From: an uncultured Alphaproteobacteria bacterium
GTDB taxonomy: Bacteria > Pseudomonadota > Alphaproteobacteria > RF32 > CAG-239
Length of the DNA: 64,000 nucleotides
Reading direction: 5' to 3'
NCBI GenBank assembly: GCA_944392295.1
Contig: CALXWE010000004.1
Span: 45,819 to 109,818, forward strand
The notes beneath the pieces were generated by a model. The model saw only the letters and a program-made list of their open reading frames with translations, was not told where the DNA came from and made no database searches. This document shows, one piece after another, positions 7,778 through 30,408 of the stretch (positions within the stretch are counted from its first letter, which is position 1; the number at the start of each line of letters is the position of its first letter). A program made the translations under genes and the position numbers.

Positions 7778-8407
7778 CTATTTCCAAGTAGCATAAAATA
7801 CGCATCCGCTTGATTCTTTTAAGCAACTATTACAGAGAGTATCAAAGTCTTCTAGAGTTAGACTTCTGATACATCTTTTGTTTTTAGATGTATCACAATA
7901 AGCGTCACCATGAAGAGTGTTTGATGAATATTCCGTATCTCCGTCTTCTGATTGACTTTGGATTTGTGAATAAGCGTTATACAATATTCCTGAATGTTCT
8001 TTGTATACATTAAGTAAGTTGCGGCATATTTCTAAACCGTTATTATCTGAACTAAATCGGTAGGCTAAACCGTAAACTGTTGGGTAGGCAAATACCCAAA
8101 TATCATTTTTAAAAATATCATTTAAATAGGTTGAGTTGCGGCGAGAGATTCCATCTGGGAGCATATTTAATTTATAAAGAGTTTCAGCAAAGTGCATGGC
8201 GGCGCCGTTGGTTGATGTATTAATTAACTTATGGCTTATTTCAAAAGCATTGATAAATAACATATTCATGCTTTCTGCTTGCTTATTTAGTTTATATTTC
8301 ATCATCGCCTTAGAGTAACCGGAGATGGCACCCACCGACAGTACGCCTATAATAGCCAAGACGCCGAGCATTTCGACCATCGAGCGTCCAAGTTCATTAA
8401 ATTTCAT
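7778..8407 (-). CDS. Type IV pilin-like protein, variable family paralog B, short leader
   Basis: Same leader and N-terminal helix as paralog A (MKFNELG|RSMVEMLGVLAIIGVLSVGAISGYSKAMMKYKLNKQAE). C-terminal Cys cluster CDTSKNKRC...CNSCLKESSGCVFY. Confidence 0.75.
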   Translation of the reverse strand: MKFNELGRSMVEMLGVLAIIGVLSVGAISGYSKAMMKYKLNKQAESMNMLFINAFEISHKLINTSTNGAAMHFAETLYKLNMLPDGISRRNSTYLNDIFKNDIWVFAYPTVYGLAYRFSSDNNGLEICRNLLNVYKEHSGILYNAYSQIQSQSEDGDTEYSSNTLHGDAYCDTSKNKRCIRSLTLEDFDTLCNSCLKESSGCVFYATWK

Positions 8408-12363: not shown

Positions 12364-13651
12364 TTATTTTGAAGTTTCTTCAAGAGCCTCGCGCGTGGCT
12401 TCTAAATAAGCATAACCATATTTTTGATCAGGCTCTAAATGCGCGCCTTCCGCCCATTCGTTCCAGGCATTGATAAACACAAATTGTTCGTTGTCTTTAT
12501 GGTTTTTGTGGGTCCAGCTGATAATGTCTTTCAGCCAAGTTTTGTAGTCTTGCGGTGTGTTTTCACAAATTTGGGCACCGTTATAACATTTGCGGGGAGT
12601 GTTGTCCCATGACGGAAAACAGCCCTTAAAAAATCTTAACCGAAGAGTCGTATAGGTAGCCTTTTTCTTTTACAAATTTTGCCATGTCATAGCATATGCC
12701 CTTAAATTTAGAATTAACGATTTTTTCCGATTTTTGATCAAGCATTTTGCTTAATCCGGCCGGAAAAAATTCTACCAGGGCATCAAAGCCATATTTGTTG
12801 ACGGTCTCGGCATATTCGCTTCGGGCTCCTTTGGCGGTGGTTATTAAATATATTCCTTCAAATCCCTCATTTCTGGCAATGCTTTGTATTTTATTTATGA
12901 AAGCCTTTAGGGTATCAAGAGGGTATTTTTGCGGCTGATACAAAATCAATAAGGGACGGTTATCAATTTTAATATAACGCGAATCTTTCATAAAGGGTAA
13001 AATATCTTGCATAAATTTTTCGGCATCACCATCAACAATTTCTTGCTTATAGAGTATTTCTTTTTCTTTACCGTTATCCCACAGCATTGACCAATCTTCG
13101 TTGGCCCAAAATAAGAAAAACGGCATATCCAAAGAGGTGTCGGCTAAAAATTTTTGAATGGGCTTTTCCATAATCTTGGTGCCGGAAAACCAGTAATAAT
13201 AAAAGCAAAAACCATATATACCGTATTGCTTGGCAAGCTCAATTTGGCGTTTCATAACATTAATGTTATCTAAATTATAATAGCCGACATCAATCGGAAT
13301 ATGAGGCTGCCAATGACCGACGTACTGCGGCACGGCTTTGGAGGTGTTTGACCATTCGCTAAAACCGCGGCCGAACCATTTAATGTTTTCTGCAAAATCA
13401 TGGTATTGCGGCAGGTAAAAGGCAATGGGTTTTACTTTATTTGAACCGTTATATAAATTGTTGCGGTCGCAGCCGATAAATAACGATTTATCAAGCTGAT
13501 GATTGAGCACATATTCTATATAAGCGTCTTTATCATTATCGTTTATGACTGCCGCTTGTATTTTTTCTTTATGACGGATTTTAATTTTTATGCCTAAAAA
13601 TTTAATAACGGTCAGCTTTTTTTCTTTATTGATACCAAACAGAGAAGACAT
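12364..13651 (-). pseudogene. WbsX-family (GH99-like / Glyco_tran_WbsX) gene interrupted by a frameshift in a homopolymer
   Basis: The track ORF 12626-13651 ends ...SSVKIF*. The next frame continues without a stop as (F)KGCFPSWDNTPRKCYNGAQICENTPQDYKTWLKDIISWTHKNHKDNEQFVFINAWNEWAEGAHLEPDQKYGYAYLEATREALEETSK*, with its stop at 12364-12366. That is the conserved C-terminal part of the family. The frames join if the run of six A (plus strand 12628-12633) is one base shorter. Confidence 0.7.
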
Positions 13652-13653
13652 TT

Positions 13654-14316
13654 TTATGCCTCCAGATATTTATCAATGATTTTTACGGCAAAGTCTATTT
13701 CTTCCTGAATGGTCATTTTTGAAGTATCAAGCAAAACGGCATCGGGTGCCGGTTTGAGCGGCGCAGTGCTGCGTTCGCTGTCGCGTTTATCGCGGGCGGT
13801 TAAATCTGCCAGAACCTGTTCAAAAGTGGTATCTATACCTTTGGCAGTAAATTCGGCAAAACGGCGTTTGGCTCTCACTTCAGGAGATGCTACCACAAAA
13901 AATTTAATATCGGCGTGCGGGCAGACTACTGTTCCCGTATCGCGACCGTCGTAGACAACGCCGTTGGCGGGAGTGCCGTCGGCAAATACCGGATTTAACG
14001 AAAAATCTTGTTGCATTTTAAGCAAGGCTCGTCTTACCTTGGGTAGTGCCGAAACTTTTGAAGCTGCCGTACCGCCTACCTGTGAACGGAAATCCGGGTG
14101 TTGGGATAATTGCATCATTTTGCTAAAAGTTAATTCTTTGGCAGCTTTTTCTGCCAAATTTTCATCTTCTGGATTTTGTCCGCTTAAAACCATCTCAAGA
14201 CCTACTGCGCGGTATAACATACCGGTGTCAAAATATGCCAAATGGTAGCGTTCGGCTAATGCCGATGATAAAGTGCCTTTGCCGGCGGCAGCCGGTCCGT
14301 CAATCGTAATTATCAT
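13654..14316 (-). CDS. cmk: Cytidylate kinase
   Basis: MIITIDGPAAAGKGTLSSALAERYHLAYFDTGMLYRAV is a canonical Cmk N-terminus. 220 aa. Confidence 0.92.
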   Translation of the reverse strand: MIITIDGPAAAGKGTLSSALAERYHLAYFDTGMLYRAVGLEMVLSGQNPEDENLAEKAAKELTFSKMMQLSQHPDFRSQVGGTAASKVSALPKVRRALLKMQQDFSLNPVFADGTPANGVVYDGRDTGTVVCPHADIKFFVVASPEVRAKRRFAEFTAKGIDTTFEQVLADLTARDKRDSERSTAPLKPAPDAVLLDTSKMTIQEEIDFAVKIIDKYLEA

Positions 14317-14406
14317 GATTTTTTCCGTTCCTGTTATAATGTTATTATTTCCTTAACATAATTTTTATACAATGTATAATCAAACTAACATTTTATACAA
14401 AGATAT

Positions 14407-15150
14407 TTGAGAGTAAACGTGAGTAAAAAAAATAGAATAAGACTTTATACCGATGTTAACTTAGAGCAGGGCGGCATTGTGGAGTGTAATGAAAATCAGA
14501 CTCATTACCTTAGTAACGTGTTGCGCTTGCAGGAAGGTGATGAAGTGTATTTGTTTAACGGTAAAGACGGTGAATTTAAAACTCATATTAACAAACTTTC
14601 AAAAAAGAGCATTGAGCTTGCGGTTGATGAGTGCTTTTTACCCTTTACGTCCAGCCCCGATTTATGGCTTTTGTTTGCTCCACTTAAAAAAGATAATACC
14701 GATTTGGTAACGGTAAAGGCTACCGAACTCGGGGTTTCCAGATTATGCCCGATTATCAGTGAATTTACCAATACGGTAAACGTACGCAGGCAAAGGCTTA
14801 ATTTGTTGGCGGTGGAAGCTGCCGAACAATCAAGAAGGCAAGATGTTCCGCAAATTGATGAGCCGATGGATTTATGTAAACGACTTGCCGAATGGCCGCA
14901 AAATCGAACGTTGTTTTATTTAGATGAAACAGGCGGCGGTAAAACTATTATACAGGCTTTGCAAAATATATCCGGACCGGCAGCTTTTTTGGTTGGACCG
15001 GAAGGTGGATTTTCGCAAAAAGAACTGGAATTTTTAAGAAATTGCTCTTATACTTGTCCCATAACGCTCGGGAAAAGAATTTTACGGGCCGAAACCGCAG
15101 CTGTGGCAGCTTTATCTTGTTGGCAGGCTTTGTGTGGTGATTGGCGTTAA
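14407..15150 (+). CDS. rsmE: 16S rRNA (uracil1498-N3)-methyltransferase
   Basis: RsmE motifs GPEGGFSQKELEF and LGKRILRAETAAVAAL. Start uncertain (TTG at 14407 or GTG at 14419). Confidence 0.85.
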   Translation: MRVNVSKKNRIRLYTDVNLEQGGIVECNENQTHYLSNVLRLQEGDEVYLFNGKDGEFKTHINKLSKKSIELAVDECFLPFTSSPDLWLLFAPLKKDNTDLVTVKATELGVSRLCPIISEFTNTVNVRRQRLNLLAVEAAEQSRRQDVPQIDEPMDLCKRLAEWPQNRTLFYLDETGGGKTIIQALQNISGPAAFLVGPEGGFSQKELEFLRNCSYTCPITLGKRILRAETAAVAALSCWQALCGDWR

Positions 15151-15163
15151 TTTTTATTCGATT

Positions 15164-15877
15164 ATGAGGAGAACGGATTTGAAAATACTTATTGCTGATG
15201 ATCACGAGTTGTTCTTAAGAGGATTGGAATTTATTTTGAAATCTGATTATCCTAATGCTCAGGTGTGTTTGAGCAAAAATTATACGGAAGTTTTTGAACA
15301 GCTTGAAAAAAATACCGATTTCGATTTGATTGTTACCGATTTAGCTATGCCCGGAGCTAACTGGCTTGAGGCTTTGAAAAAAATTCATGATATGGCCAAA
15401 GATACGCCCATCGTTATTATTTCAGCCGTTTTTGATAAGGAAATTGTACAGAAAACTCTTGAGGTTGGAGTTTCGGGGTACATACCGAAGTCTTCTTCCA
15501 ATGCTGTTATGTTAAGTGCTATTAATTTGGTTTTGGCAGGGGGAGTTTATATTCCTCACGAGCTGTTAAATAATGAAATAGATAATAAGGAAATTACCCA
15601 AGAATTTCAAAAGTTGAAAACCTTTAATGATAGTGAAAAAAATAATGAAACGGCTGCCAATAAAAAGAAACTTACTCCAAGGCAAATAGAGGTGGTTCGT
15701 GCCATAGCCAGAGGATTGTCTAATAAAATGATTGCTTATGAACTGGGTTTGACCGAAGGTACGGTTAAAGTTCATGTTACGGTCATTCTTAAAGTATTAG
15801 GCGTTACTAACCGAGTAGCTGCCGTTATGGAAGCCGTAAAGCAAGGTTATGTTTCAAAAAATGAAGTTAATTTGTAA
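15164..15877 (+). CDS. Response regulator, REC + LuxR/FixJ-type HTH
   Basis: KILIADDHELFLRGL...DLIVTDLAMPG (receiver domain). LTPRQIEVVRAIARGLSNKMIAYELGLTEGTVKVHV (LuxR HTH). The start is either the ATG at 15164 or the in-frame TTG at 15179 after AGGAGA. No kinase gene is adjacent. Confidence 0.85.
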   Translation: MRRTDLKILIADDHELFLRGLEFILKSDYPNAQVCLSKNYTEVFEQLEKNTDFDLIVTDLAMPGANWLEALKKIHDMAKDTPIVIISAVFDKEIVQKTLEVGVSGYIPKSSSNAVMLSAINLVLAGGVYIPHELLNNEIDNKEITQEFQKLKTFNDSEKNNETAANKKKLTPRQIEVVRAIARGLSNKMIAYELGLTEGTVKVHVTVILKVLGVTNRVAAVMEAVKQGYVSKNEVNL

Positions 15878-15903
15878 ATACCGTTAGATTATGAGGAAAA
15901 GGT

Positions 15904-16641
15904 ATGCCTGCTACAAAGTATAATATTGTTAAAAGCTCTAAGGCCGTTAAAACTCCGGCTTATGTTAAAGAGATATATGGTAAAATCTATGAAAATGAAA
16001 AATTGTGCCGCTTTTTAGATGATGATCGCATAGTTTCCGTTATGACATGGGGATTGCAAAATCGTTTGGTAGATGATGTGGTTAAAGAGATAAGTACTAA
16101 CAGTAAGGTGCTGCAAATAGGTTGCACTTTCGGTAAGCAAATCGGTGCGGTGGCCGAAAAAATCGGTGCTTACGGAAAGTATGTTATTGAAGATGTTTGT
16201 CCGCAACAAATAAATCGCTGCCGTAGTAAGGAAATTTATCAAAAAATAAGTTTCCAATCGCATGATGCGAGCCGGCCTCGCAGCGAAAAGTATGATACCG
16301 TTATTTGCTATATGTTATTGCATGAACTACCCCCTGTTACCAAAGCTAAAGTGATAAACAATGCCTTGGACAGTGTTGATGAAGGTGGAAAGGTTATATT
16401 TGTGGATTATCACAAACCAAGCAAATGGAATTTGTTGCGCTATATAATACAGCCTTTTAACCGTTTGTATCAACCGTTTGCCGAAAGTATGTGGAAATAC
16501 GGCATTGAAGACTATGCCAAAGATAAAGAGTGCTTTGTGTGGCGCAAAAAAACTTACGGTGGCAGAATGTATCAAAAATTGGTAGCAGTGCGGCAAATTC
16601 CGGCGTATGAAAAGCCTGTGGTAAAGCCCAGTTTTTATTAA
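15904..16641 (+). CDS. Class I SAM-dependent methyltransferase fold, RquA-like (rhodoquinone biosynthesis candidate)
   Basis: Atypical motif I VLQIGCTFGKQ. LLHELPP, VIFVDYHKPSKWNLL and LYQPFAESMW resemble my recollection of R. rubrum RquA (LLHE.P, VDYH.P..W, LEPFA..LW). Needs an HMM and phylogeny check. Confidence 0.5.
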   Translation: MPATKYNIVKSSKAVKTPAYVKEIYGKIYENEKLCRFLDDDRIVSVMTWGLQNRLVDDVVKEISTNSKVLQIGCTFGKQIGAVAEKIGAYGKYVIEDVCPQQINRCRSKEIYQKISFQSHDASRPRSEKYDTVICYMLLHELPPVTKAKVINNALDSVDEGGKVIFVDYHKPSKWNLLRYIIQPFNRLYQPFAESMWKYGIEDYAKDKECFVWRKKTYGGRMYQKLVAVRQIPAYEKPVVKPSFY

Positions 16642-16656
16642 CTCAAAATACAAAAT

Positions 16657-16689
16657 AAAAGCGGTACTTTTACAAAAGCACCGCTTTTA
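16657..16689. terminator. Bidirectional terminator between the RquA-like gene and the 1992-aa gene
   Basis: AAAAGCGGTACTTTT-ACA-AAAAGCACCGCTTTT, a 15-bp stem with one mismatch. Confidence 0.8.
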
Positions 16690-16691
16690 TT

Positions 16692-19600
16692 TTATTGGGT
16701 TATAGAATTGTTATTTTCAAGTTTCTTTTGGCGATACATACGTATCAACTTGGTTATGTAATTTTGTATCATTGAAACCATATATTTTTGATTATAGCTG
16801 TTGTGAATTTCATCATAATTATCTGTAGATGAAATGTTTTGCGTTTCTTTACCCTTTACAAAAAGTTTGATAAGAGCTTTTTTAAGTGCGGTCGGATTGG
16901 TGTTTTCTTGGGCTAAAAATACTTCTAAACCTTTTCCGGCAACACTGCGTGTTAGGGAATTGGGGTTACGGGACTTAAAGGTATCCGACATACCGCGAAT
17001 AACTTCCTTATCATTTTTACCGGAAAGCAATATCGCTCTTACAGCATTATATCCGGCTAAATCTTCGTTAGTCTTTGAGTTGTTAATGCTTTGTGCTATC
17101 TTAATAATGGCGGCAATTTTGGCGGCGTATTGCGATTTATAATTACCGCTTTTATATAACATCATATAGGTTGTTATCATATCGGGAGTTTCGCCTTCGC
17201 CCTTTTCGGCTACCGTAAAGTTAAAGGTATCGTATAAAAGACGTCCGAATTCATATCGGTCCTCAGGTGAAAATGGATGATTGTTTTCTTGTCTGTTAAT
17301 GGTATAGATAACCTCTTTCATGATGCCTTTTAAAATGGCCGTATCAACATTTTGACGTTTGATTAATTCTCCGATTGTCGGCATAAATTCCTTTGGTATA
17401 TCCGGACTTAAGGAATTTTTATCAAGTTCCTGAATGCGATCGGCCATTATTTTGAGTAATGGTATTTTAACTTCCGATGCTTGTTGAACTTTAATTATTT
17501 CTTTCTTGATTACGCTGCCTATTTTGGCGGGTAAATACTTAAAGGAATCGGCGTACATATTAAACAACATACTGCCTAAAAATTCTCTGTCCGAATACGA
17601 TAATAAATTTTGTTCTGAATAAAATAAACCGAGTTGTTTTATTCCTTCATCAACAAAACCGGTTATGATGCTTTCATCAATTGAGGTATTGCCGTCAGCT
17701 AAGGCGTTGTTTATACAATCTACCAAATCAATGATTTGAAAATCTTTATAAAAATCAATAACAGAGAGCAGTGTCTTTAGGCAATCTGATAAGTAGGATG
17801 AAGTCGTTTGTTTTAGCCGATAAGCATCTTCAATTTTGTTTCCGAGAGTAACGCTGAACTGACGGAATAAATTTCCTTCAAAATTACTGCTTACCATTTT
17901 CTCAAAAGTTTGGTATAAAAATTTTCCAAGCAATTTTTTATCTTGTGCCGAGGCATATACGGTGGCTCGTGCTCCACTATCAAAAATACAAATGGTATTA
18001 GTTTCCGGATTGAGGCGTATCTGTCGGCCAAATTCAGTATTGCTGACATTTCCCCCGCTTATTAATTTGCTTAATTTAAGACTGTTATAAATTTTATTTA
18101 CTACCTGTCTGTAACGTAAATTTTTAATTGTATCTAATGTGTTGCCGTAACTTCTTTCCATTTCTGCCCAAGTTTTACCGTAAGCTGTCCAATTGGCTAC
18201 TCTTAGCTTAATCTTATAACCATCAATTTCAAATTCACGGTGATTGTAGGTCTTTTGGGCCGCTTTTAGCTGCTCGTAGCCTACACTTAAATCGGTCTCA
18301 ATTATAACATCATGTCGGGTTTGAGTAATTATTTGTAGAAGACTATTGATGTTTTCGGATAACAGATTGTCGTGGAATAAGTCGTACAAAGTGTCTTCAA
18401 ATGCCTTAAATTCTTTTTCGGCAGAAGTTTTTGTAGCAGCATAAACGATTTTTACAACTTTGTCGCTTTCAAATGGTGATTTGTTTTTTTCAAGTGCACC
18501 TTTTTCTAAAGTTATAAAATACGGATTGGAGCTTAGGCTGCGTCCGAGCCAGATGTTTGAACTGTAATCAAGTTTGTTATCGTCATCTTGTGTATTATAA
18601 AAGTCAAGCCATTCAAACAATTCCCAACGAGCTGGGTGCTGCTCCTTAAACTTTATTTTTTGTAACTCTTTACGTATATATTTAGGCAGAGCTAAACAAA
18701 CTGTTGCCGATTGTGCTATACGTGTAGCAACCGGACCGGCATTTTCTAAAAAGATGCGGGTGCACTCTGCTAAATTTTTATTAGCATCGATGGTTGCCGG
18801 TGTCTCAAGGGCAGCGCTCATGGCTGCAGCCAGATATAATGTGCGCTCTGAATTTTTATGAGCTTTGATGTAGCTGTGTAAAATCTTACATACAATTTGT
18901 TTCTTAACATCATCAACAGCGGGTAACAAATGTTTACATATGCAGTTGAAAATGTGCTCCCAATCATTGGCCGAAATCCCTAAATTAGAAGCTTGGATAA
19001 CTTCACCTAAAATGACGGCACGGGCCTCTATTGGATATCCCCAAAATTCATGGTAAAGCATATCAAGAGTTTGCGGAGATATTCTTTCTTTACGAGAGCG
19101 TTGACTTTCTTGCAGTGCAGAATTTAAATGCTGGCTGTAGGCTTCACAATCCTTGTTACTACCGAATGTTAAAAGAAAGTCTATCAGATTATCGGCTTCC
19201 GTGCGGGATAAGGATATTAATGATTTAATTGTAGCAAATCCGGCAATTTGCAGCCTACATCCGTCATCTTCTTCGCTTATTTCCATAAAACTTGCAGGGT
19301 AGGGTTTTAACAGAAAAGCAAGTTTTTTTTGTGCTACAAATCTTTCTGCCAACAAGTGTGATAATTCAAGTCGGTCAGCCTGATTAACATTTTCATCAAT
19401 GTCTATGCCGAACATATTTTGTTCATAACTGTAGCCGTGCAGTTTTTGAGCATATACTTTTACTTTGTTGTAAAGGGATTCTGATTTGTCATCAATTTGT
19501 GAACCGCAGGAGCTAAATACCGATTGTACCCATAGCTGTTGATAACGCCTTCTTAAATCGGGGTCTAAAATACGGTGCTGCTTATTGATGAAAATATCGT

Positions 19601-22600
19601 AATAACTGTTTTTTAATTCAGGCTCGCGAATACTTTCTATCTCGGGAATAAAGTTTTCCAAAAATTGATGTTGTAAAACATAATCGTCGGCAAATCCGTT
19701 GACTTCAACCAATTTTTGATAGGCCTTAATTTTACCTATTAAATCGACATTGAATGCCGGGTTGTCTTGGATTAGCATATTTTTGAGTTGGTTGTCGCCA
19801 ATGTAGTCTAGTGTTTTGGCTATCTCAACCGAGGCAGCAAGAGCTTTTTGCGGGTTGTTTTCTTTTTTAATTTGTTTGATTATGTAGCTCAAACTTTCCG
19901 TATCATCAATAAGACCTTGCTCGCGAAGGCTGCGGTAGACCTTAACCATGCCCAAAATGTCGGCAGGATAATTTTCTCTTTTGATTAAAAACGGTTTGAG
20001 CTTGGCTCTTTGCAAATCCAGCAATTCATAAAGCGGATACTTTGATAATATCTCAAGCGGAAACAGATGCTTGTCATCGGTGATGATGTATAGCAGCATA
20101 CCGGTTCGGATATTGGCTGCCAAATCATCGGAAGATTGTAAAAGTTTTTCATCTTTAAAGTCGGCAAAATCAACCGGAAAATCTAGAGCCTTTCGAATGT
20201 GTTCGTAAAAGACCGGTTGATATTTTTGGAAATTAATATTCTCTAATGTTAAGTGTTTGTCTGCAGCCATTTCGTTAAGAGCAAAAACGGCAAGACGTTT
20301 TAATTCGGGAATGACAATGTTGTTTTTGCTTAACAGACCTAAATCGAGAAGTTTCTTAACGCCTACTTTTTCAAACAAGGTGTTGTAATATTTAATAAAT
20401 TGGGCTTCGCTGAAAAATTGTACGCTGCGTGGGGATTTAAGCGCATCTTTACAAAATTGCATAAATTCATATTCGATAGGTTGCAATGTGTTAAGCGACC
20501 AACCGTATTCTGCATGTTCAACGTCGTTGCAAACGTGGCTTAAGTAAGCTTCAAAAATTATGTTGTCGTTTTCAAGACTATACTTCGAATTAACAAATGC
20601 TAAAATCTCGGGACCGAGCAGTTTGTTAAATCGCAGCTCGTTAAATTTGCTGTAACCTTCGTAAATTTCCGAGGAAGTTTTGAGCATGTAAAAACTATCT
20701 TCTATAAAATTTTCAACAGGCTGTTTTTGCGGATAGGCAACGCTGGTATTATCTTTGAGTAAGGCATTGGCATAATCAAGGGATGATACTGCTTCTGACT
20801 TTGCTACATATTTGTATGGACCGGTGAGACCTTTAAGATGTAAGAGGTCTTTACTGCTTAAGTTTTTAATTTTTTGCGGATTTTGCGAAGCCGTACGAAT
20901 TATATCGTAGTACTGCTTAATCTCCTTGGCAAGCTGCCGATAAATGGTATCTTCCCTGGTTTGCAGTAAATCTTCAAGTTTGGCTTTATATTCTTTTGGT
21001 GAAAACGAATCGAGGATTTTGCCTTGATTGTCGCAAATATAAAACCAGCTCTTATCGGTAACATCAGCTGAAAATGGGGCTTCGCGGTAATTGCCGCGAT
21101 AGTGTATTATATAGCACCCTTTATATATTTCTTTGGCGGTTAATCCTAGGATTTTTTCATATACGGAAGATCGCAAAGCAATTAAGGGTATGGTCTTACC
21201 TTTATCAGAACCGTTTTGTTCCAGAGGTAATTTAGGAAATCTGTCCAGCTTAAATTTTTTAAACAGATAGCTATCGCTTTTAGGGTAAAATTTTAAATCT
21301 TGCGGTAAAAATGTAGTCGGGTTGTCGGAGCTGAAACAATCTCGGATATTGGAAAATTTTGACCATACACGACGCTGATATGCAGGGTCTTCTTGGTTGT
21401 GAAATACTTTTTCAAATTCTTCCAAAATGTTTCTTCCGGTAGGAAGTTTGCTGATATCAATATCTTCTATGCCGCTTAAAATACATCCGTTATAAATGCT
21501 TAAATAATCGCCGTCGGGAAGCTGGGTTTCTAAATCAAGCAATTTATCCCAGAACAAAACGTTGGGAAAAGTTCCCTCAGCAATGGCCCGCTTTTGATAC
21601 TCTTCAAGCAGATTGTTAAATCGGGAAACAGTTTCAAATGCATCATCAGGTACAATTTTTTGCGGAAAACTTTCTAAAATTGAAATACGATGCTCAAGAG
21701 ATTCCGGCAAAGGCGTATGAAAAATTTCTTGCCAACGTTTTTGACGCAACTCTTCGTGAGCCGGATTATAACTTTTAAATAATTCATAGTCGCTTTGAGA
21801 GACAATTTTACGTGCCATATTGCGTCTTAAGTCGGCGACATAACTTAAAATAACATCTTCAATTTGTACGGCTTGATTATGAGTTAATTCCTTTGAAGGC
21901 GGAATAAATTCTTTTAGAGCAGAAATTAATATATCTTGCTTTTCGATTAAACTAAAGGAATCGTACTTTTTACTTTCTAAAAGTTTACGCAGGCTTGATT
22001 TATAGTAACTTTTGTTTACCGAAGTTTTAAATTTAACCGGAATTTCGGTCGGCTCAAAAGCCGTAATGTCAATATCTTGTTTGTAATAGAAACTTTGTAA
22101 AGATTGAATCTTTAACTGTAAAGCATTAAGCATACTTTCATTATTAGGGTATTGTTTGAAAGCTTTTAAGATTTTTGCAGATAAAGAGTGATATTTTTGT
22201 GAGTTAAGAAAAATATGGGTTATTAAACTTTCGGCCTGGGCAATGTTATATTTGGCCTGAGCTAACATTTTAAGGGCGTTAAAGTCAGAAGAATCTCCTG
22301 CGCTGTAATCGGTGTTTTTGAAATAAGCAGGAATAAGTTTTAGCTCATAACTCATAATGAAGGCTAATTGGTCTTCATTTTGTACAATATTGATTAGACC
22401 TTTGGTTACGGTTAGGACAGGAATAAGGTTTTGCTTGCCGGCTTGATTTTTAATTTGCGGAACAACAAAGGAAATATTAGGTTCACTATCGTCGGTGATG
22501 CAGAAAAATACGGGATTTTGATCAAGATCAAATGAGGTGCCGAAAAGTCGGCGGGCTATACCCTCAAGATAAGAGCATCTTTCTTGTTCTTCTTGCAAAG

Positions 22601-22670
22601 TACCATCAATGATTTTAATCTGGTCATACAAATCAGAAGGTAAATTTCTTTTAATCTGTAAAACATCCAT
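16692..22670 (-). CDS. Giant orphan protein (1992 aa), mostly helical, with a degenerate ABC1/UbiB-like kinase-like module
   Basis: Uninterrupted 5.98-kb ORF with no signal peptide or TM segment evident. Residues ~1305-1600 (nt 17871-18758) loosely follow the ABC1 pattern (details in findings). Confidence 0.8.
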   Translation of the reverse strand: MDVLQIKRNLPSDLYDQIKIIDGTLQEEQERCSYLEGIARRLFGTSFDLDQNPVFFCITDDSEPNISFVVPQIKNQAGKQNLIPVLTVTKGLINIVQNEDQLAFIMSYELKLIPAYFKNTDYSAGDSSDFNALKMLAQAKYNIAQAESLITHIFLNSQKYHSLSAKILKAFKQYPNNESMLNALQLKIQSLQSFYYKQDIDITAFEPTEIPVKFKTSVNKSYYKSSLRKLLESKKYDSFSLIEKQDILISALKEFIPPSKELTHNQAVQIEDVILSYVADLRRNMARKIVSQSDYELFKSYNPAHEELRQKRWQEIFHTPLPESLEHRISILESFPQKIVPDDAFETVSRFNNLLEEYQKRAIAEGTFPNVLFWDKLLDLETQLPDGDYLSIYNGCILSGIEDIDISKLPTGRNILEEFEKVFHNQEDPAYQRRVWSKFSNIRDCFSSDNPTTFLPQDLKFYPKSDSYLFKKFKLDRFPKLPLEQNGSDKGKTIPLIALRSSVYEKILGLTAKEIYKGCYIIHYRGNYREAPFSADVTDKSWFYICDNQGKILDSFSPKEYKAKLEDLLQTREDTIYRQLAKEIKQYYDIIRTASQNPQKIKNLSSKDLLHLKGLTGPYKYVAKSEAVSSLDYANALLKDNTSVAYPQKQPVENFIEDSFYMLKTSSEIYEGYSKFNELRFNKLLGPEILAFVNSKYSLENDNIIFEAYLSHVCNDVEHAEYGWSLNTLQPIEYEFMQFCKDALKSPRSVQFFSEAQFIKYYNTLFEKVGVKKLLDLGLLSKNNIVIPELKRLAVFALNEMAADKHLTLENINFQKYQPVFYEHIRKALDFPVDFADFKDEKLLQSSDDLAANIRTGMLLYIITDDKHLFPLEILSKYPLYELLDLQRAKLKPFLIKRENYPADILGMVKVYRSLREQGLIDDTESLSYIIKQIKKENNPQKALAASVEIAKTLDYIGDNQLKNMLIQDNPAFNVDLIGKIKAYQKLVEVNGFADDYVLQHQFLENFIPEIESIREPELKNSYYDIFINKQHRILDPDLRRRYQQLWVQSVFSSCGSQIDDKSESLYNKVKVYAQKLHGYSYEQNMFGIDIDENVNQADRLELSHLLAERFVAQKKLAFLLKPYPASFMEISEEDDGCRLQIAGFATIKSLISLSRTEADNLIDFLLTFGSNKDCEAYSQHLNSALQESQRSRKERISPQTLDMLYHEFWGYPIEARAVILGEVIQASNLGISANDWEHIFNCICKHLLPAVDDVKKQIVCKILHSYIKAHKNSERTLYLAAAMSAALETPATIDANKNLAECTRIFLENAGPVATRIAQSATVCLALPKYIRKELQKIKFKEQHPARWELFEWLDFYNTQDDDNKLDYSSNIWLGRSLSSNPYFITLEKGALEKNKSPFESDKVVKIVYAATKTSAEKEFKAFEDTLYDLFHDNLLSENINSLLQIITQTRHDVIIETDLSVGYEQLKAAQKTYNHREFEIDGYKIKLRVANWTAYGKTWAEMERSYGNTLDTIKNLRYRQVVNKIYNSLKLSKLISGGNVSNTEFGRQIRLNPETNTICIFDSGARATVYASAQDKKLLGKFLYQTFEKMVSSNFEGNLFRQFSVTLGNKIEDAYRLKQTTSSYLSDCLKTLLSVIDFYKDFQIIDLVDCINNALADGNTSIDESIITGFVDEGIKQLGLFYSEQNLLSYSDREFLGSMLFNMYADSFKYLPAKIGSVIKKEIIKVQQASEVKIPLLKIMADRIQELDKNSLSPDIPKEFMPTIGELIKRQNVDTAILKGIMKEVIYTINRQENNHPFSPEDRYEFGRLLYDTFNFTVAEKGEGETPDMITTYMMLYKSGNYKSQYAAKIAAIIKIAQSINNSKTNEDLAGYNAVRAILLSGKNDKEVIRGMSDTFKSRNPNSLTRSVAGKGLEVFLAQENTNPTALKKALIKLFVKGKETQNISSTDNYDEIHNSYNQKYMVSMIQNYITKLIRMYRQKKLENNNSITQ

Positions 22671-22887: not shown

Positions 22888-25587
22888 ATGAGTAAATGGG
22901 TTTATACATTTGGAAACGGCAAAGCCGAAGGCGATGCCAGCATGCGTAATCTCCTCGGCGGTAAAGGTGCTAACCTTGCTGAAATGAACAAGGTTGGTTT
23001 GCCTGTTCCTCCGGGATTTACCGTAACAACTGAAGTTTGTACTTATTACTATGATAACAACAATACTTATCCGGCAGATTTGAAAGATCAGGTAAGAGAA
23101 GCCGTTGCCGGTGTTGAAAAAATTATGGGCAAAAAGTTTGCTGATGCCAATAATCCGTTGTTGTTCTCAGTTCGTTCCGGTGCAAGAGTTTCAATGCCTG
23201 GTATGATGGATACCGTTTTGAACTTGGGCTTAAACGATGAAACAGTTAAAGCTTTGGCTAAAGCTTCCGGCAGTGAAAGATTTGCTTACGACTCTTATCG
23301 CCGTTTCTTGCAAATGTTCTCCGACGTAGTTTTGGGTGCCGATTTGGATTTGTATGAAGAAGCTTTGGATAATATGAAAAAATCTAAAGGTTACAAGTCG
23401 GATACCGATTTAACTGCCGAAGATTTGAAAGAACTCGTTAAAGAATATAAAGAAATCGGTGCTAAATTAGGTAAAATCGTTCCGCAAGATCCTTGGGAAC
23501 AATTATGGGCAGGTATCGGTGCCGTATTTGGTTCTTGGATGTCGGCTCGTGCCATTACTTACCGTAAATTAAACAATATCCCCGGCGATTGGGGAACAGC
23601 CGTTAACGTTCAAACCATGGTATTTGGTAATGCCGGTGATGATTGTGCTACGGGTGTTTGCTTCTCTCGTGACCCTGCAACCGGTGAAAACGTATATTAC
23701 GGCGAATATTTAGTTAACGCTCAAGGTGAAGACGTTGTTGCCGGTATTCGTACTCCGCAACCGATGGGCAGTATCGGTGATGGCACTTCTTTGGAAGAAA
23801 AATGGCCTAACTTGTATAAAGAATTGGTTGATGCCAGAAATAATCTGGAAAATCACTACAAAGATATGCAGGATATGGAATTTACCATTGAACATGGTAA
23901 ACTTTGGATGTTGCAATGCCGTAACGGTAAAAGAACAGCTGCTGCTGCCGTTCGTATGGCCGTTGAAATGGTTGAAGAAGGTTTGCTCACCCCTGAGGAA
24001 GCTATTATGCGTGTAGGTGCTGACCAATTAGACCAATTGTTGCACCCGATGCTTGATCCTAAAGCTAAGAAAAATGTTATTGCTACCGGTTTGCCGGCTT
24101 CTCCTGGTGCTGCCGTTGGTCGTGCCGTATTTAACGCTGAAGATGCTGAAGCTTGGGCAGAAAAAGGTGAAAAAGTTATCTTGATCCGTAACGAAACCTC
24201 TCCGGAAGATATTGGCGGTATGCACGCTTCTCAAGGTGTTATTACTGCTCGCGGCGGTATGACTTCTCACGCAGCCGTTGTTGCTCGTGGTATGGGTACT
24301 CCTTGCGTTTCCGGTTCTAAAGATATTACAATCGATTATAAAACCAAAACTATGACCACTAAGTCTGGTGTTGTTGTTAAAGAAGGCGACTGGGTATCTT
24401 TGGATGGTGCTAAAGGTCAAATCATTGAAGGTCAAATTCCGACCGTTAAGGCTGATACCAATACCGGTAACTTCGGTAAATTGATGACTTGGGTTGATCA
24501 AATTCGTACTATGAAAGTTCGTGCTAACGCTGAAACTCCTAAAGATGCTCAACAAGCTCTTGATTTTGGTGCAGAAGGTATCGGTTTGGCTCGTACCGAA
24601 CATATGTTCTTCGATGCCGGTCGTATTGCTGATATGCGCGCTATGATTTTGGCTGATAACGAAGCTGGTCGTCGTGAGGCTTTGGCTCGTTTGCTGCCTT
24701 ATCAAAAACAAGACTTCAAAGACTTGTTCAAAATTATGAACGGTTTGCCGGTTACTATTCGTTTGTTGGATCCTCCGTTGCATGAATTCTTGCCTCATAC
24801 CGATCCGGAAATGAAGGAATTGGCCGATAAATTAGGTAAAACTTTGGAAGAAGTTAAAGTAAGAGCTAACGCTTTGCACGAATTGAACCCGATGTTGGGT
24901 CATCGTGGTTGCCGTTTGCCGATTACTTATCCTGAAATCGGTGAAATGCAAACTCGCGCTATCTTAGAAGCTGCTTTGGAATGCGAAGCTGAAGGAATTA
25001 AAGTTATTCCTGAAATCGAAGTTCCGTTAACAGGTTCTAAGAAAGAGTTGGATATTGTTAAAAACATTATCGATACAACTGCTGAAAAAGTATTTGCTGA
25101 AAAAGGTAAGAAGATTGATTACATCGTAGGTACCATGATTGAGTTGCCTCGTGCCGCTTTGATGGCTGAAGAAATTGCTGAATCTGCTGCATTCTTCGGT
25201 TTTGGTACAAACGACTTAACTCAAACCACTTTGGGTATGAGCCGTGATGATACCGGTGCCATTTTGGATGAATACCGCGCTAAAGGTGTTTATGTAGCTG
25301 ATCCGTTTGCTTCGATCGATGTTGACGGTGTTGGTAAATTGGTTCGTCGTGCCGCTGTTGAAGGCCGCGCTACCAATCCGGATTTACACTTAGGTGTTTG
25401 CGGTGAGCACGGTGGTGATCCTAAATCTATCGAATTCTTTGATGAAGTAGGTTTGGATTATGTTTCTTGCTCTCCGTTCCGTGTACCGGTTGCTCGTTTG
25501 GCTGCAGCTCAAGCTGCTGTTAAACACAAAGGCAAAAAGAAAGATGTCGATGGTGCATCTCACGGTTGCTGCAAAAAATGCGCTTAA
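22888..25587 (+). CDS. ppdK: Pyruvate, phosphate dikinase
   Basis: 899 aa. GGKGANLAEM, phosphohistidine loop GGMTSHAAVVARGMG, GLARTEHMF, and CGEHGGDP in the PEP-utilising C-terminal domain. Extra Lys/Cys-rich 21-aa tail. Confidence 0.97.
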   Translation: MSKWVYTFGNGKAEGDASMRNLLGGKGANLAEMNKVGLPVPPGFTVTTEVCTYYYDNNNTYPADLKDQVREAVAGVEKIMGKKFADANNPLLFSVRSGARVSMPGMMDTVLNLGLNDETVKALAKASGSERFAYDSYRRFLQMFSDVVLGADLDLYEEALDNMKKSKGYKSDTDLTAEDLKELVKEYKEIGAKLGKIVPQDPWEQLWAGIGAVFGSWMSARAITYRKLNNIPGDWGTAVNVQTMVFGNAGDDCATGVCFSRDPATGENVYYGEYLVNAQGEDVVAGIRTPQPMGSIGDGTSLEEKWPNLYKELVDARNNLENHYKDMQDMEFTIEHGKLWMLQCRNGKRTAAAAVRMAVEMVEEGLLTPEEAIMRVGADQLDQLLHPMLDPKAKKNVIATGLPASPGAAVGRAVFNAEDAEAWAEKGEKVILIRNETSPEDIGGMHASQGVITARGGMTSHAAVVARGMGTPCVSGSKDITIDYKTKTMTTKSGVVVKEGDWVSLDGAKGQIIEGQIPTVKADTNTGNFGKLMTWVDQIRTMKVRANAETPKDAQQALDFGAEGIGLARTEHMFFDAGRIADMRAMILADNEAGRREALARLLPYQKQDFKDLFKIMNGLPVTIRLLDPPLHEFLPHTDPEMKELADKLGKTLEEVKVRANALHELNPMLGHRGCRLPITYPEIGEMQTRAILEAALECEAEGIKVIPEIEVPLTGSKKELDIVKNIIDTTAEKVFAEKGKKIDYIVGTMIELPRAALMAEEIAESAAFFGFGTNDLTQTTLGMSRDDTGAILDEYRAKGVYVADPFASIDVDGVGKLVRRAAVEGRATNPDLHLGVCGEHGGDPKSIEFFDEVGLDYVSCSPFRVPVARLAAAQAAVKHKGKKKDVDGASHGCCKKCA

Positions 25588-28200: not shown

Positions 28201-29379
28201 CTAGAATACCAATCTCATTGTATCTTTGGCAATCATCAATTCTTCATCGGTCGGGATAACAAAAACTTTTACTTTAGAATCCGGGGTTGATATTTCCAAA
28301 GTTTGTCCGCGTTTATTGTTATTTTCTTCATTAAGCTTAATGCCTAAATAAGCTAAGCGCTCAACAACAAGTTTACGAACGATTGAACCGTTTTCACCTA
28401 CACCTGCGGTAAAGACAATGGCGTCAACGCCGCCCAACACGGCAATGTAACCGCCGATAAAACGCAATAAGGTGTGAACATAGACGTTCATAGCATCAAT
28501 AGCATCTTGCTCGCCGTTTAAATAACGTGCTTCAACATCACGATTATCGGAAAATCCGCAAATGCCGAACATGCCGCTTTGTTTGTTAAGCAAAGTATTT
28601 ACTTCGTCTACGGTCTTGTTTTGAGTTTTCATAATGTACAGCGGAATGTAGGGATCGATATCGCCGGAACGAGTACCCATAACAACACCGGCCAGCGGAG
28701 TAAAGCCCATGGAGGTATCAACGCATTTACCGTGCTCAATGGCGGCAATTGACGCTCCGTTGCCTAAATGGCAGGTAATGATTTTACCTTCTTTACCAAT
28801 AAGTTCGGCAGCTTTTTGTGATACATATTTATGCGAAGTGCCATGGAAACCGTAACGACGAATTTTGTGCTCGGTGTATTGTTCTTTAGGCAGAGCGTAT
28901 AAAAAGGCTTCTTTAGCCATGGTCTGATGAAAAGCCGTATCAAATACTACAACTTGCGGAATATTTGGCAAAATGCTCTTTACGGCTCTGATACCGGCAA
29001 CGCTTGCCGGATTGTGTAAAGGTGCGAGCTCGGAAAGTTCGGCAATTTCTTCAATAACCTCATCGGTTACTATAGCAGAGCCCTTAAATGTTTCGCCGCC
29101 ATGCACAATACGGTGTCCTACGGCGCTTAATTCATCCATGCTGTGCAAAGGACCGCTCAAGAGCATATTTAATACCTCGCGGATGGCTTCGGTATGGGTC
29201 GGTAATTCAACATCTTTAACTTGTTTATCATCACCTATTTTTAAGCTGACAAAAGAGCCGTGAATACCGATACGATCGGCAACACCTTTGGCCAAAACTT
29301 CGTAGTTGTCGCCGTCAACGTTAAACAGCTGATATTTTAATGATGAGGAACCGGAGTTTAATACTAAAATTTTTTTCAT
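28201..29379 (-). CDS. ackA: Acetate kinase
   Basis: MKKILVLNSGSSSLKYQLF, RIVHGG and FHGTSHKYV are canonical. 392 aa. Confidence 0.95.
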   Translation of the reverse strand: MKKILVLNSGSSSLKYQLFNVDGDNYEVLAKGVADRIGIHGSFVSLKIGDDKQVKDVELPTHTEAIREVLNMLLSGPLHSMDELSAVGHRIVHGGETFKGSAIVTDEVIEEIAELSELAPLHNPASVAGIRAVKSILPNIPQVVVFDTAFHQTMAKEAFLYALPKEQYTEHKIRRYGFHGTSHKYVSQKAAELIGKEGKIITCHLGNGASIAAIEHGKCVDTSMGFTPLAGVVMGTRSGDIDPYIPLYIMKTQNKTVDEVNTLLNKQSGMFGICGFSDNRDVEARYLNGEQDAIDAMNVYVHTLLRFIGGYIAVLGGVDAIVFTAGVGENGSIVRKLVVERLAYLGIKLNEENNNKRGQTLEISTPDSKVKVFVIPTDEELMIAKDTMRLVF

Positions 29380-29403: not shown

Positions 29404-30408
29404 TTACTTGTGAGTAGCCTGTAAGCAGGTGATGGCAATTACGCCGGCGATATCTTCGGCAAAGGCTCCGCGAGATAAATCGTTAATCGGGGCATTTAAG
29501 CCTTGCAACATCGGACCGTAAGCTTCACATCCGCCCAATCTTTGCAACAATTTATATCCGATGTTTCCGGCTTCCAAGTTAGGGAAGATTAAAACTTTGG
29601 CCTTACCGGCAACGTGGCTGTCGGGAGCTTTTTTCTTGGCAACTACGGCATCAAGTGCTGCATCGGCTTGCATTTCACCATCAATTTCAATGCCGGAATC
29701 TTTATAAATATCGGCTTTTAATGCTTCTTGAGCCAGGGCTGTGGCATTGCGTACTTTATCAACGTTTTCGCTCTTGGCCGAGCCACGGGTTGAAAATGAT
29801 AACATGGCAACTTTGGGCTCAATTCCGAATTGAATGGCTGTTTCGGCGGCGGTTAAAGCAATATCAGAAAGTTCTTTTTCCGTCGGATTAATTACTACTC
29901 CGCAGTCGGAAAATAAATATGGGGTGTCGTTTGATATCATAATCAAAAATGATGAAACACAGCGGTCTTTCTTAGCTGATTTTATAATCTGTAAGGCCGG
30001 ACGAACCGTATCGGCCGTTGAGTGATTGGCTCCCGATACCATACCGTCGGCATCACCGGCTTTTACCATTAAGGTTCCAAAGTAGGTATAGTTTACGGCA
30101 GTCTGTGCAGCTTGCTCTAAAGTCATACCTTTTTCTTTACGAAGGTTATATAATAATTCGGTATATTCGGCAAGCTTGGGTGATTTTTCGGGTTCTACTA
30201 CTTCAATCCCTCTTAAGCTCCAACCGTTCTTATTAAAATAATCGTGAATTTGGTCTTCTTTTCCGAGTATTATGAGCTTAGCGGCGTTGGCATCGGCAAT
30301 GATGTGTGCTGCTTTTAAAACTCTTTCCTCTTCACCTTCGGGTAAGACTATTGTTTTTAAATTTTCTGAGGCTTTGGCTATTATGCCGTTGAGATATTTA
30401 CTGAGCAT
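29404..30408 (-). CDS. pta: Phosphate acetyltransferase
   Basis: 334-aa PTA_PTB-type protein (…GADGMVSGANHSTADTVRPALQIIK…, …FPNLEAGNIGYKLLQRLGG…). Immediately upstream of ackA. Confidence 0.92.
   Translation of the reverse strand: MLSKYLNGIIAKASENLKTIVLPEGEEERVLKAAHIIADANAAKLIILGKEDQIHDYFNKNGWSLRGIEVVEPEKSPKLAEYTELLYNLRKEKGMTLEQAAQTAVNYTYFGTLMVKAGDADGMVSGANHSTADTVRPALQIIKSAKKDRCVSSFLIMISNDTPYLFSDCGVVINPTEKELSDIALTAAETAIQFGIEPKVAMLSFSTRGSAKSENVDKVRNATALAQEALKADIYKDSGIEIDGEMQADAALDAVVAKKKAPDSHVAGKAKVLIFPNLEAGNIGYKLLQRLGGCEAYGPMLQGLNAPINDLSRGAFAEDIAGVIAITCLQATHK

Follow-up and report, generated by a model that had tools for sequence, protein, structure and literature searches.

Conserved synteny of an RquA gene with rsmE and a NarL-type response regulator in an uncultured gut alphaproteobacterium

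The window, i.e. the whole 64,000-nucleotide stretch of DNA analysed here, carries a gene for the rhodoquinone biosynthesis enzyme RquA, which follows rsmE and a response regulator gene on the plus strand. The genes and signals of this cluster and its left neighbor are as follows.

13654..14316, minus strand: cmk, (d)CMP kinase (TIGR00017 at 176.3 bits, cut-off 135.55)
14353..14380, plus strand: promoter-like site TTAACA-16-TATAAT, 5' of rsmE, with 11 of 12 consensus matches
14407..15150, plus strand: rsmE, 16S rRNA (uracil1498-N3)-methyltransferase (NF008696 at 282.2 bits, cut-off 234)
15179..15877, plus strand: NarL/FixJ-type response regulator with a receiver and a GerE/LuxR helix-turn-helix (PF00072, 74.6 bits; PF00196, 62.5 bits)
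15904..16641, plus strand: rquA, rhodoquinone biosynthesis enzyme (NF038261 at 211.5 bits, cut-off 175)
16650..16695, no strand assigned: hairpin with A/T-rich flanks (20-bp stem, MFE −22.6 kcal/mol, z = −7.8)

The cluster begins with rsmE. Gene callers on identical contigs place the start of this gene at window position 14419. The TTAACA-16-TATAAT site is the best promoter-like site in 13500–17200 and a candidate promoter of an rsmE–regulator–rquA transcript. The regulator gene starts with a TTG at 15179 with a GAGGAG site and ends 26 nt 5' of rquA; the best NCBIfam match of its product is ErdR, at 125 bits, under the cut-off of 390. A candidate for the kinase paired with this regulator is encoded at 45548–46627. 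At the other end, the hairpin lies between the convergent rquA and the gene for a 1992-aa protein, and none of 200 shuffled sequences folds equally well. It is a probable bidirectional intrinsic terminator closing the rquA cluster. Judged from these signals, rquA is probably co-transcribed from the candidate promoter 5' of rsmE, with the transcript ending at the hairpin.

The rquA ORF has an ATG start and encodes 245 aa plus a stop, with GAGGAAAAGG as the ribosome-binding site a few bases 5' of the ATG, and the strand opposite is interrupted by stops. All motif strings that the initial annotation had quoted for this 245-aa protein are present in the translation, which contains VLQIGCTFGKQ (residues 68–78), MLLHELPP (137–144), FVDYHKPSKWNLL (166–178), and LYQPFAESMW (188–197). 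An identical protein is encoded on at least 22 metagenome contigs (43 index blocks), with constant gene order and the frame intact, and homologs were found down to E = 7e-153. The ORF is real, far beyond chance. Its GC content is 38.9%, compared with 38.5% for the window. Against seven orthologs, dN/dS is at most 0.057; the gene is under strong purifying selection, with dN/dS of about 0.05 or lower.

The family assignment was examined with several models. Pfam recognizes Methyltransf_25, _23, and _11 above their cut-offs, all generic methyltransferase domains, and the JGI automatic annotation labels several homologs 'ubiquinone/menaquinone biosynthesis C-methylase UbiE'. These labels are what speaks for a mislabelled ordinary quinone C- or O-methyltransferase of the UbiE/UbiG type. 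Against this, NF038261, the NCBIfam equivalog model of RquA, aligns residues 18–229 to model positions 2–217 of 218 with E = 1.2e-62, at a score above its cut-off, and the UbiE model (NF001244 and relatives) stays at 13.4 bits, far under its cut-off of 216. No UbiG model was present among the NCBIfam matches at E ≤ 1. CpaM, the corrinoid protein-associated methyltransferase (NF043040), was rejected as an identity, its model giving 41.8 bits where 180 is the cut-off. We also built a separate HMM from nine non-gut RquAs, comprising seven sequences named RquA by NCBI, the Paulinella sequence, and one from Magnetococcales, whose NCBI name is only class I methyltransferase. This profile scored 173.9 bits for the window protein, 40.6 for UbiE, and 14.2 for UbiG. 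In pairwise comparison, the window protein is ~30–33% identical to named RquAs of other phyla, 24% identical to UbiG over 119 residues (28 bits), and 21% identical to E. coli UbiE over 131 residues. The RquA family is discrete: of 1.84 billion cluster representatives, 449 match at E ≤ 1e-3. Proteins 74–75% identical to the window RquA are already named RquA by NCBI.

Corrected distances from the window protein are 1.5 to named RquAs and 3.4–3.5, i.e. saturated, to UbiE/UbiG. A neighbor-joining tree with four outgroups did not split RquA from the outgroups (46% bootstrap); the outgroups joined aberrant long-branch singletons. A cleaned tree, from which 8 aberrant sequences and 2 distant outgroups had been removed, split RquA from UbiE/UbiG with 59% bootstrap. 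Neighbor joining separates RquA from UbiE/UbiG only weakly (46–59% bootstrap). In the comparison with RquA, UbiE, and UbiG sequences that had been proposed earlier, the window protein groups with RquA by profile and by distance.

An AlphaFold2 model of the protein (pTM 0.79) shows an alternating beta–alpha core. Foldseek returned more than 1300 PDB matches at E ≤ 0.001 with TM of 0.5–0.6, the best 50 of which are all SAM-dependent methyltransferases or putative ones. The predicted fold is that of a Rossmann-like class I SAM-dependent methyltransferase. The initial annotation had described an atypical motif I on such a fold; the fold is seen here by Pfam and AlphaFold2, and the altered motif I in the translation. 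At motif I position 3 (VLQIGCTFG), Q71 is Gln in 108/124 family members and Asp in E. coli UbiE and UbiG; this Gln replaces the Asp/Glu of UbiE/UbiG/Coq3/Coq5 (Lonjers 2012, cited in PMC7813818). Val for Gly at position 7 has been cited as RquA-diagnostic. The window protein has T75 there, neither Gly nor Val. A non-Gly residue at position 7 is, like Q71 and the three blocks below, common to the family and missing from UbiE/UbiG. Across the 124 members this position is V in 59, T in 26, A in 24, S in 6, and C in 4, so Val is not universal, and the gut clade is invariantly Thr. G77 also counts among the hallmarks of the window RquA.

D97 is Asp in 121/124 members, and D121 is D in 97 and N in 25. 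In five family members, the residues aligned to these two carry exactly the numbers 118 and 143; in E. coli UbiE, their counterparts are the post-I Asp and the Asn. In Rhodospirillum rubrum RquA, the double mutation of D118 and D143 abolishes activity (PMC9814641). The mapping of D97/D121 to R. rubrum D118/D143 is by numbering and homology; on this mapping, both SAM-contact aspartates appear to be conserved in the window protein. A profile search seeded by the five D118/D143-numbered representatives found named RquAs from Gammaproteobacteria, Anaerolineales, and Sedimenticola and a related Magnetococcales sequence, with Rhodospirillum absent among the 120 listed matches.

Three further family-specific blocks lie outside the SAM motifs: HExP after strand 4 (H140 in 107/124, E141 in 116/124, and P143 in 121/124), DY where strand 5 ends (D168 in 108/124 and Y169 in 101/124), and PF in the C-terminal segment (P191 in 118/124 and F192 in 94/124, with Y in 20 more). 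Most of these positions are different in UbiE and UbiG. The initial annotation had matched blocks of the protein to RquA, and this match was accurate; the family-specific blocks are present. Motif I has neither the Asp nor the GxGxG glycines, the RquA-specific blocks are in place, and the UbiE/UbiG-type reading is effectively refuted by the model scores, the nine-RquA profile, the hallmark residues, and the UbiE alignment, and we give it hardly any weight. The earlier claim that the protein is RquA, and not UbiE or UbiG, holds.

As a diverged RquA family member, the protein could still differ in its chemistry, its quinone substrate (another benzoquinone or a naphthoquinone), or its use of SAM. 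The gut subclade has invariants of its own that are absent from the majority of family members, namely T75, Q79, N186-R187-L188, and a C-terminal ...KPSFY tail; the low identity to named RquAs of other phyla fits such a reading, as does at least one rquA homolog, from the Desulfobacterota class GWC2-55-46, which yielded no rhodoquinone in E. coli (PMC13386864). This inactive homolog indicates that homology alone is no proof of RquA function. However, the window protein exceeds the equivalog cut-off and keeps all family-wide hallmark residues, and the gut MAG clade falls in Group A near the euglenid RquAs (Stairs et al. 2018, eLife 7:e34292), where the knock-down of rquA in Euglena removes RQ9. 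We consider a different chemistry improbable.

The surroundings of rquA were compared across 80 related loci. cmk adjoins the cluster in 76 of them, being divergent and bounding the syntenic block on its left; rsmE lies on the same strand at most 1.5 kb 5' of rquA in 78; and the regulator is directly upstream on the same strand in 55. The identity of RquA co-varies with the identities of the cmk and rsmE products and of the regulator (Pearson 0.76–0.90), and rquA is kept at the same locus even in genomes where RquA identity is down to 42%. Because the cmk / rsmE–(regulator)–rquA synteny is conserved and its members have co-diverged, the comparison points to a long vertical inheritance of rquA in the gut lineage, and not to a recent transfer. 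We rejected a recent horizontal arrival on the basis of the shared locus and the co-divergence with neighbors. Another reading would make the gene a non-functional or decaying remnant left by an ancient horizontal transfer. Nothing specific favors this, although the bacterial distribution of rquA is patchy; the low dN/dS, the frame intact on at least 22 contigs, and the retention of the locus despite divergence effectively refute it and leave it a negligible probability.

All close relatives of the window RquA come from uncultured gut Alphaproteobacteria and include the MAGs 'Azospirillum sp. 51_20' and 'Acetobacter sp. 46_36', to whose RquAs the window subclade is 44–45% identical; its nearest species-representative genome is 86% identical. 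Bins with this locus include CALXTJ01 (BRZ_KS bin114), CABQIK01 (MGYG-HGUT-00610), CAAFZY01 (HGM16767), and the one that contains ERZ16268135 scaffold_191. Stairs et al. (2018, eLife 7:e34292) reported 'MAG Azo/Aceto' gut Alphaproteobacteria as rquA carriers. Since the MAG names match this set, the relatives apparently belong to the same lineage, with the same locus (cmk / rsmE–rquA) and the same anaerobic gut habitat. In that study, the gut MAG clade lies within Group A, where it is sister, with weak support, to eukaryotic RquAs including those of euglenids, and a relatively recent LGT of rquA into the gut MAGs was proposed. In contrast, the synteny and co-divergence observed here favor long vertical inheritance, and an ancient vertical rquA in the gut lineage bears on that scenario. 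A donation of rquA from the gut clade to anaerobic protists such as Blastocystis has likewise been discussed as a possibility.

The literature already covers the family, its unusual chemistry, and its occurrence in MAGs of gut Alphaproteobacteria; the copy in the window is an ordinary, well-conserved one, and its carriage by relatives was known. Standard annotation pipelines would name the gene RquA, and as found it matters little. What is new in this analysis is small: the conserved cmk / rsmE–(response regulator)–rquA cluster, in which rquA has co-diverged with its neighbors, with a conserved response regulator immediately 5' of rquA, where no rquA-linked gene had been reported before.

We conclude that the gene likely encodes a functional RquA ortholog and is an old vertically inherited gene that ends a conserved rsmE–regulator–rquA cluster. 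R. rubrum RquA employs SAM for its amino donor with Mn2+ and exchanges a methoxy group of ubiquinone for an amino group, with no methyl transfer (PMC9814641). By orthology, the window RquA would perform the same amino transfer from SAM onto ubiquinone to give rhodoquinone. Such a low-potential quinone would let complex II run in reverse as fumarate reductase, and the host may use it with a fumarate reductase encoded elsewhere in its genome. The conversion of ubiquinone to rhodoquinone has been shown for RquAs of 15 species, none from the gut clade (PMC11707229). Purified R. rubrum RquA required oxygen in vitro; as the gut lineage may be strictly anaerobic, another oxidant would be required there.

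The supply of ubiquinone was approached through the DNA around rquA. NCBIfam scans found no ubi, sdh/frd, or nuo gene among the ORFs of the 64-kb window, nor in the 10 kb past its downstream end and the 8 kb past its upstream end, which hold only housekeeping genes. A tblastn search with 14 Ubi and Sdh queries from E. coli, SdhA/B/C/D among the targets, gave no match in the window and 86 related loci (at most 10 kb from rquA). The DNA sampled for these genes amounts to ~82 kb of the host genome and ~1.5 Mb around rquA in relatives, i.e. ~4% of one genome and ~1% of each other, which is too small to show absence. Nothing relevant on the quinones of RF32 or CAG-239 was found in the literature searched, including the supplements of a 2026 quinone survey and a 2026 preprint on rquA in animals.

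A functional RquA might instead act on scavenged ubiquinone, in a reduced, anaerobic gut bacterium without ubiquinone synthesis of its own that draws it from host cells, diet, or neighboring Proteobacteria. This reading would agree with the lack of ubi genes in the sampled DNA, with the rquA-bearing eukaryotes without ubiquinone synthesis for which scavenging was proposed (Stairs et al. 2018, eLife 7:e34292), and with the quinones known as growth factors for gut bacteria (reference cited in PMC13386864). However, absence means little in a sample of this size, and RquA of Pseudomonadota co-occurs with the ubiquinone pathway, e.g. with the O2-independent pathway in 73/84 genomes (PMC11707229). 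We regard scavenging as unlikely. In its fuller and equally doubtful form, ubiquinone taken from the host epithelium, diet, or neighbors would be turned into rhodoquinone for fumarate respiration, with the adjacent NarL-type regulator tying rquA expression to an environmental signal; if true, this would be bacterial quinone piracy and remodelling, and the first regulatory partner for rquA.

The window also holds three further genes of energy metabolism.

22888..25587, plus strand: ppdK, pyruvate phosphate dikinase (TIGR01828, 1348.6 bits)
28201..29379, minus strand: ackA (TIGR00016, 515.8 bits)
29404..30408, minus strand: pta (TIGR00651, 365 bits)

These identities, assigned in the initial annotation to ppdK and ackA-pta, are confirmed by the three models. 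ppdK lies downstream of rquA in the 4 closest relatives only and is not part of the rquA cluster. The genes of the acetate/ATP branch are transcribed in the order pta then ackA and serve as metabolic context only. The anaerobic lifestyle that had been read from these genes is plausible, as their identities and published analyses of gut MAGs agree: [FeFe]-hydrogenase, its maturases, and PFO occur in several human-gut alphaproteobacterial MAGs, apparently of the same lineage (PMC4967309), and Azospirillum sp. CAG:239 is without a terminal oxidase (PMC6431628). The window adds a data point for a widespread uncultured gut lineage that would combine anaerobic respiration on a low-potential quinone with acetate-forming fermentation.

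The founding and biochemically characterized member of the family is R. rubrum RquA (Rru_A3227, UniProt Q2RPC3). The window protein shares with it the NF038261 family, the class I methyltransferase fold, the Asp-to-Gln change in motif I, a similar size, and a variable N-terminus of ~20–40 residues with low model confidence in both. Judged from other non-gut RquAs, their identity is probably 30–40%. Motif I position 7 is Thr here and not Val, and the hosts differ, the present one being a non-photosynthetic gut bacterium; the rsmE–regulator–rquA cluster also contrasts with R. rubrum, for which no linked gene is reported. UbiE/Coq5, the C-methyltransferase of ubiquinone/menaquinone synthesis, is the presumed parent family of RquA. 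The two have in common the class I SAM-dependent fold, a quinone substrate, and ~130 alignable residues (motif I, post-I acidic, and motif II), whereas motif I reads VLQIGCTFG here and VLDLAGGTG in UbiE, the HExP, DY, and NRLYQPFAE blocks are RquA-specific, and RquA chemistry is amino and not methyl transfer (PMC9814641). Eukaryotic RquAs (Euglena gracilis, Pygsuia biforma, Blastocystis, ciliates, and Paulinella) belong to the same family, with the Paulinella sequence 33% identical to the window RquA over 223 residues. They carry N-terminal mitochondrial targeting extensions, with lengths of 290–400, whereas the window RquA lacks such an extension and sits in a bacterial operon context.

The rquA open reading frame (15904-16641, plus strand) starts with ATG and runs for 245 codons to a stop, with a ribosome-binding site, GAGGAAAAGG, just 5' of the start and many stops on the opposite strand. 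The strings that the initial annotation had quoted for its product (VLQIGCTFGKQ, LLHELPP, FVDYHKPSKWNLL and LYQPFAESMW) are each found in the translation. At least 22 independent metagenome contigs encode an identical RquA protein in constant gene order; it therefore comes from a recurrent natural organism and is no assembly artefact.

Pfam assigns only generic class I methyltransferase domains to the protein, and no PDB sequence matches it better than E = 0.013. The NCBI curated RquA equivalog model NF038261, however, matches it end to end at 211.5 bits, above the cut-off of 175. Identities as UbiE or CpaM were rejected, as these runner-up models score far under their cut-offs (UbiE, 13.4 vs 216 bits; CpaM, 41.8 vs 180 bits). 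An independent HMM was built from nine non-gut RquAs, comprising seven NCBI-named RquA proteins, one from the amoeba Paulinella and one from Magnetococcales that NCBI labels merely a class I methyltransferase. It scores the window protein at 173.9 bits and separates it from Escherichia coli UbiE (40.6) and UbiG (14.2). Homologs are many, and 74-75%-identical proteins already carry the NCBI name 'rhodoquinone biosynthesis methyltransferase RquA'. HMMER, run exhaustively over 1.84 billion cluster representatives, matched only 449 of them at E<=1e-3, with 189 reaching E<=1e-10; the RquA family is small and discrete, apart from the general methyltransferase continuum. Classification as RquA, which the initial annotation had favoured over UbiE/UbiG, rests on the NF038261 match, the non-gut RquA HMM and a residue alignment; the gene is a genuine rquA ortholog maintained by selection.

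In this alignment of 124 RquA family members with E. coli UbiE and UbiG, the window protein has all family hallmarks. Gln71 (Q in 108/124 members) replaces the motif I Asp of UbiE/UbiG, and Gly77, Asp97 (D in 121/124), Asp121 (D in 97, N in 25), His140-Glu141-x-Pro143, Asp168-Tyr169 and Pro191-Phe192 are present. A Gln at position 3 and a Val at position 7 of motif I have been described as diagnostic of RquA (PMC7813818, citing Lonjers 2012). The Gln is present, but position 7 is Thr (non-Gly, not Val); as the family has V in 59, T in 26 and A in 24 members here, we treat Val as a tendency, not a rule. In five family members, the residues aligned with Asp97 and Asp121 carry exactly the numbers 118 and 143; a pairwise alignment with E. 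coli UbiE matches the two aspartates to its post-I Asp and its adenine-contact Asn. In Rhodospirillum rubrum RquA, double Ala replacement of the aspartates at 118 and 143 abolishes rhodoquinone (RQ) synthesis (PMC9814641).

AlphaFold2 confidently models the protein as a class I Rossmann-like fold (pTM 0.79). Foldseek gave more than 1300 PDB matches at E<=0.001; the best 50, 10-18% identical, are known or putative SAM-dependent methyltransferases. Apparently, no structure of an RquA has been solved. The sole internal low-confidence stretch of the model, residues 181-194 (pLDDT below 50), coincides with the strongly conserved RquA-specific block NRLYQPFAE, which may be a mobile lid or a membrane-contact element. 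His140/Glu141 come after strand 4 and Asp168 lies at the end of strand 5. Enzymes of the catechol O-methyltransferase type have metal ligands at such end-of-strand-4 and strand-5 positions, and by this analogy we would guess that these residues form a putative Mn2+ site.

By orthology with R. rubrum RquA, the window protein would bind SAM in a modified class I pocket, with contacts from Asp97 to the ribose hydroxyls and from Asp121 to the adenine. In the presence of Mn2+, the alpha-amino group of SAM would go to ubiquinone (UQ) and the methoxy group would leave as methanol. This amino-transfer chemistry is established family knowledge (PMC9814641), and the mechanism is most likely the same here. 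The product would be RQ, whose redox potential is ~160 mV lower (PMC13386864), so that NADH electrons could reduce fumarate through complex II.

The separation from UbiE/UbiG was less clear in neighbour-joining trees computed from Kimura distances. A tree with four outgroups did not set these apart from the RquA family (46% bootstrap); they joined aberrant metagenomic singletons on long branches, distant from the clade of the window protein. Once eight sequences that had fewer than 8 of the 10 hallmarks were removed, along with the two most distant outgroups, UbiE and UbiG stood apart from all 82 family members with 59% support. The window's ten-member gut subclade is robust (96-97% bootstrap). 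The trees are consistent with the profile results, and alone are no strong evidence.

A scan with one genome per species found 159 genomes with a relative, the closest 86% identical. Every one of the best 80 of these 159 is an uncultured Alphaproteobacteria-type MAG of gut origin (human, ruminant, rabbit, mouse or chicken); 'Azospirillum sp. 51_20', 'Acetobacter sp. 46_36' and Candidatus Scatocola are among them. This matches the human-gut 'MAG Azo/Aceto' group, which Stairs et al. (2018) reported to carry rquA, placed in Group A as a weakly supported sister to the Blastocystis, Proteromonas, euglenid and neoparamoebid RquAs, and discussed as a possible donor of rquA to protists. In Euglena, RQ9 is lost on rquA knock-down. 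The finding of rquA in this gut alphaproteobacterial lineage is correct, yet already in the literature and in annotation pipelines. Separately, the NCBI-named RquA homologs P0279 and P0326 occur in MAGs labelled Anaerolineales (Chloroflexota). To our knowledge, Chloroflexota is a phylum not expected to make UQ; these cases may come from misbinning, or rquA may be more widely distributed.

rquA is the final gene of a tight same-strand cluster:

14353-14380, promoter-like site TTAACA-16-TATAAT upstream of rsmE (11/12 matches, the region's best)
14407-15150, same strand as rquA, rsmE, 16S rRNA m3U1498 methyltransferase
15179-15877, plus strand, NarL/FixJ-type response regulator, most similar to ErdR (125 bits, below cut-off)

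The gaps of 28 nt (rsmE-regulator) and 26 nt (regulator-rquA) both hold GAGGA-type ribosome-binding sites. A hairpin with a 20-bp stem (-22.6 kcal/mol, z = -7.8), a probable terminator, directly follows the rquA stop and is common to a convergent gene. From this layout we infer that the three genes are co-transcribed. In 78 of the 80 related genomes, rsmE is found on the same strand no more than 1.5 kb upstream of rquA. The regulator directly adjoins rquA in 55, which span 42-86% RquA identity; another 17 have rsmE next to rquA, with the regulator missing. RquA identity co-varies with that of the divergent (d)CMP kinase gene cmk (13654-14316, minus strand), rsmE and the regulator (Pearson 0.76, 0.84 and 0.90; Spearman p ~1e-9). 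The GC content of rquA is 38.9% (window, 38.5%), and its dN/dS against seven orthologs is <=0.057, with synonymous sites saturated. Synteny, co-divergence, GC and dN/dS together indicate a functional rquA, long vertically inherited at one locus in the gut lineage. This places the emphasis elsewhere than the suggestion that rquA reached these MAGs relatively recently by LGT (Stairs et al. 2018). The regulator may deserve minor interest, as there had been no report of a gene in genetic linkage with rquA. A histidine kinase gene 30 kb from it (45548-46627, plus strand) is most similar to the NahK/ErcS family. ErdR-type regulators and NahK/ErcS-type kinases form signalling pairs in Pseudomonas, and the two may, by analogy, be cognate partners.

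The genes on which an anaerobic metabolism had been proposed lie where the initial annotation put them:

22888-25587, ppdK (TIGR01828, 1348.6 bits)
28201-29379, ackA (TIGR00016, 515.8 bits)
29404-30408, pta (TIGR00651, 365 bits)

The proposal fits published traits of related gut MAGs, several of which have [FeFe]-hydrogenase with maturases and pyruvate:ferredoxin oxidoreductase (PMC4967309), while Azospirillum sp. CAG:239 is without a terminal oxidase (PMC6431628). Scanning all window ORFs revealed no ubi, sdh/frd, nuo or cyd genes, and the 10 kb downstream and 8 kb upstream of the window hold solely housekeeping genes. Fourteen E. coli Ubi/Sdh probes found no match in ~1.5 Mb flanking rquA in relatives. 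Together, these searches cover ~4% of one genome and ~1% of each of the others, and are uninformative on genome-wide absence. The organism might scavenge exogenous UQ for RquA, as already proposed for some protists (Stairs et al. 2018); we consider this improbable, since in surveyed Pseudomonadota RquA almost always occurs alongside a UQ pathway, for example the O2-independent one in 73/84 genomes (PMC11707229). From this co-occurrence we expect a UQ pathway in the genome.

The gene convergent with rquA (16692-22670, minus strand) encodes 1992 aa with no match in Pfam, NCBIfam, PADLOC or PDB sequences. Its homologs, 53-61% identical, are confined to the five closest related genomes and always lie between rquA and ppdK; the product is a very large lineage-restricted protein. 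Three cross-matching paralogous ORFs of ~210 aa (7018-7659, 7778-8407 and 25775-26443, all minus strand), with no family in Pfam, NCBIfam or PADLOC, recur near rquA in 16 related loci at varying positions. A WbsX-type glycosyltransferase gene (12626-13651, minus strand) has a longest ORF of 341 aa, vs 353 or 428 aa on other contigs encoding the identical RquA, which suggests strain-level truncation or frameshift of this surface-polysaccharide gene. Between ppdK and ackA, 26654-28144 (plus strand) encodes a product of 496 aa that contains a phage-lysozyme domain (PF00959) and weakly resembles the gene-transfer-agent endolysin BgtA. Two tandem MlaD paralogs of 150 and 176 aa (44409-45396, minus strand) score 124 and 127.9 bits, each slightly under the equivalog cut-off of 135. 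The RNA genes, listed with tuf, are ordinary housekeeping:

273-367, minus strand, bacterial small SRP RNA
37257-38501, minus strand, tuf
38502-38691, minus strand, tRNA-Gly(TCC) and tRNA-Tyr(GTA), immediately upstream of tuf
41184-41260, tRNA-Pro(GGG)
54601-54677, tRNA-Val(GAC)
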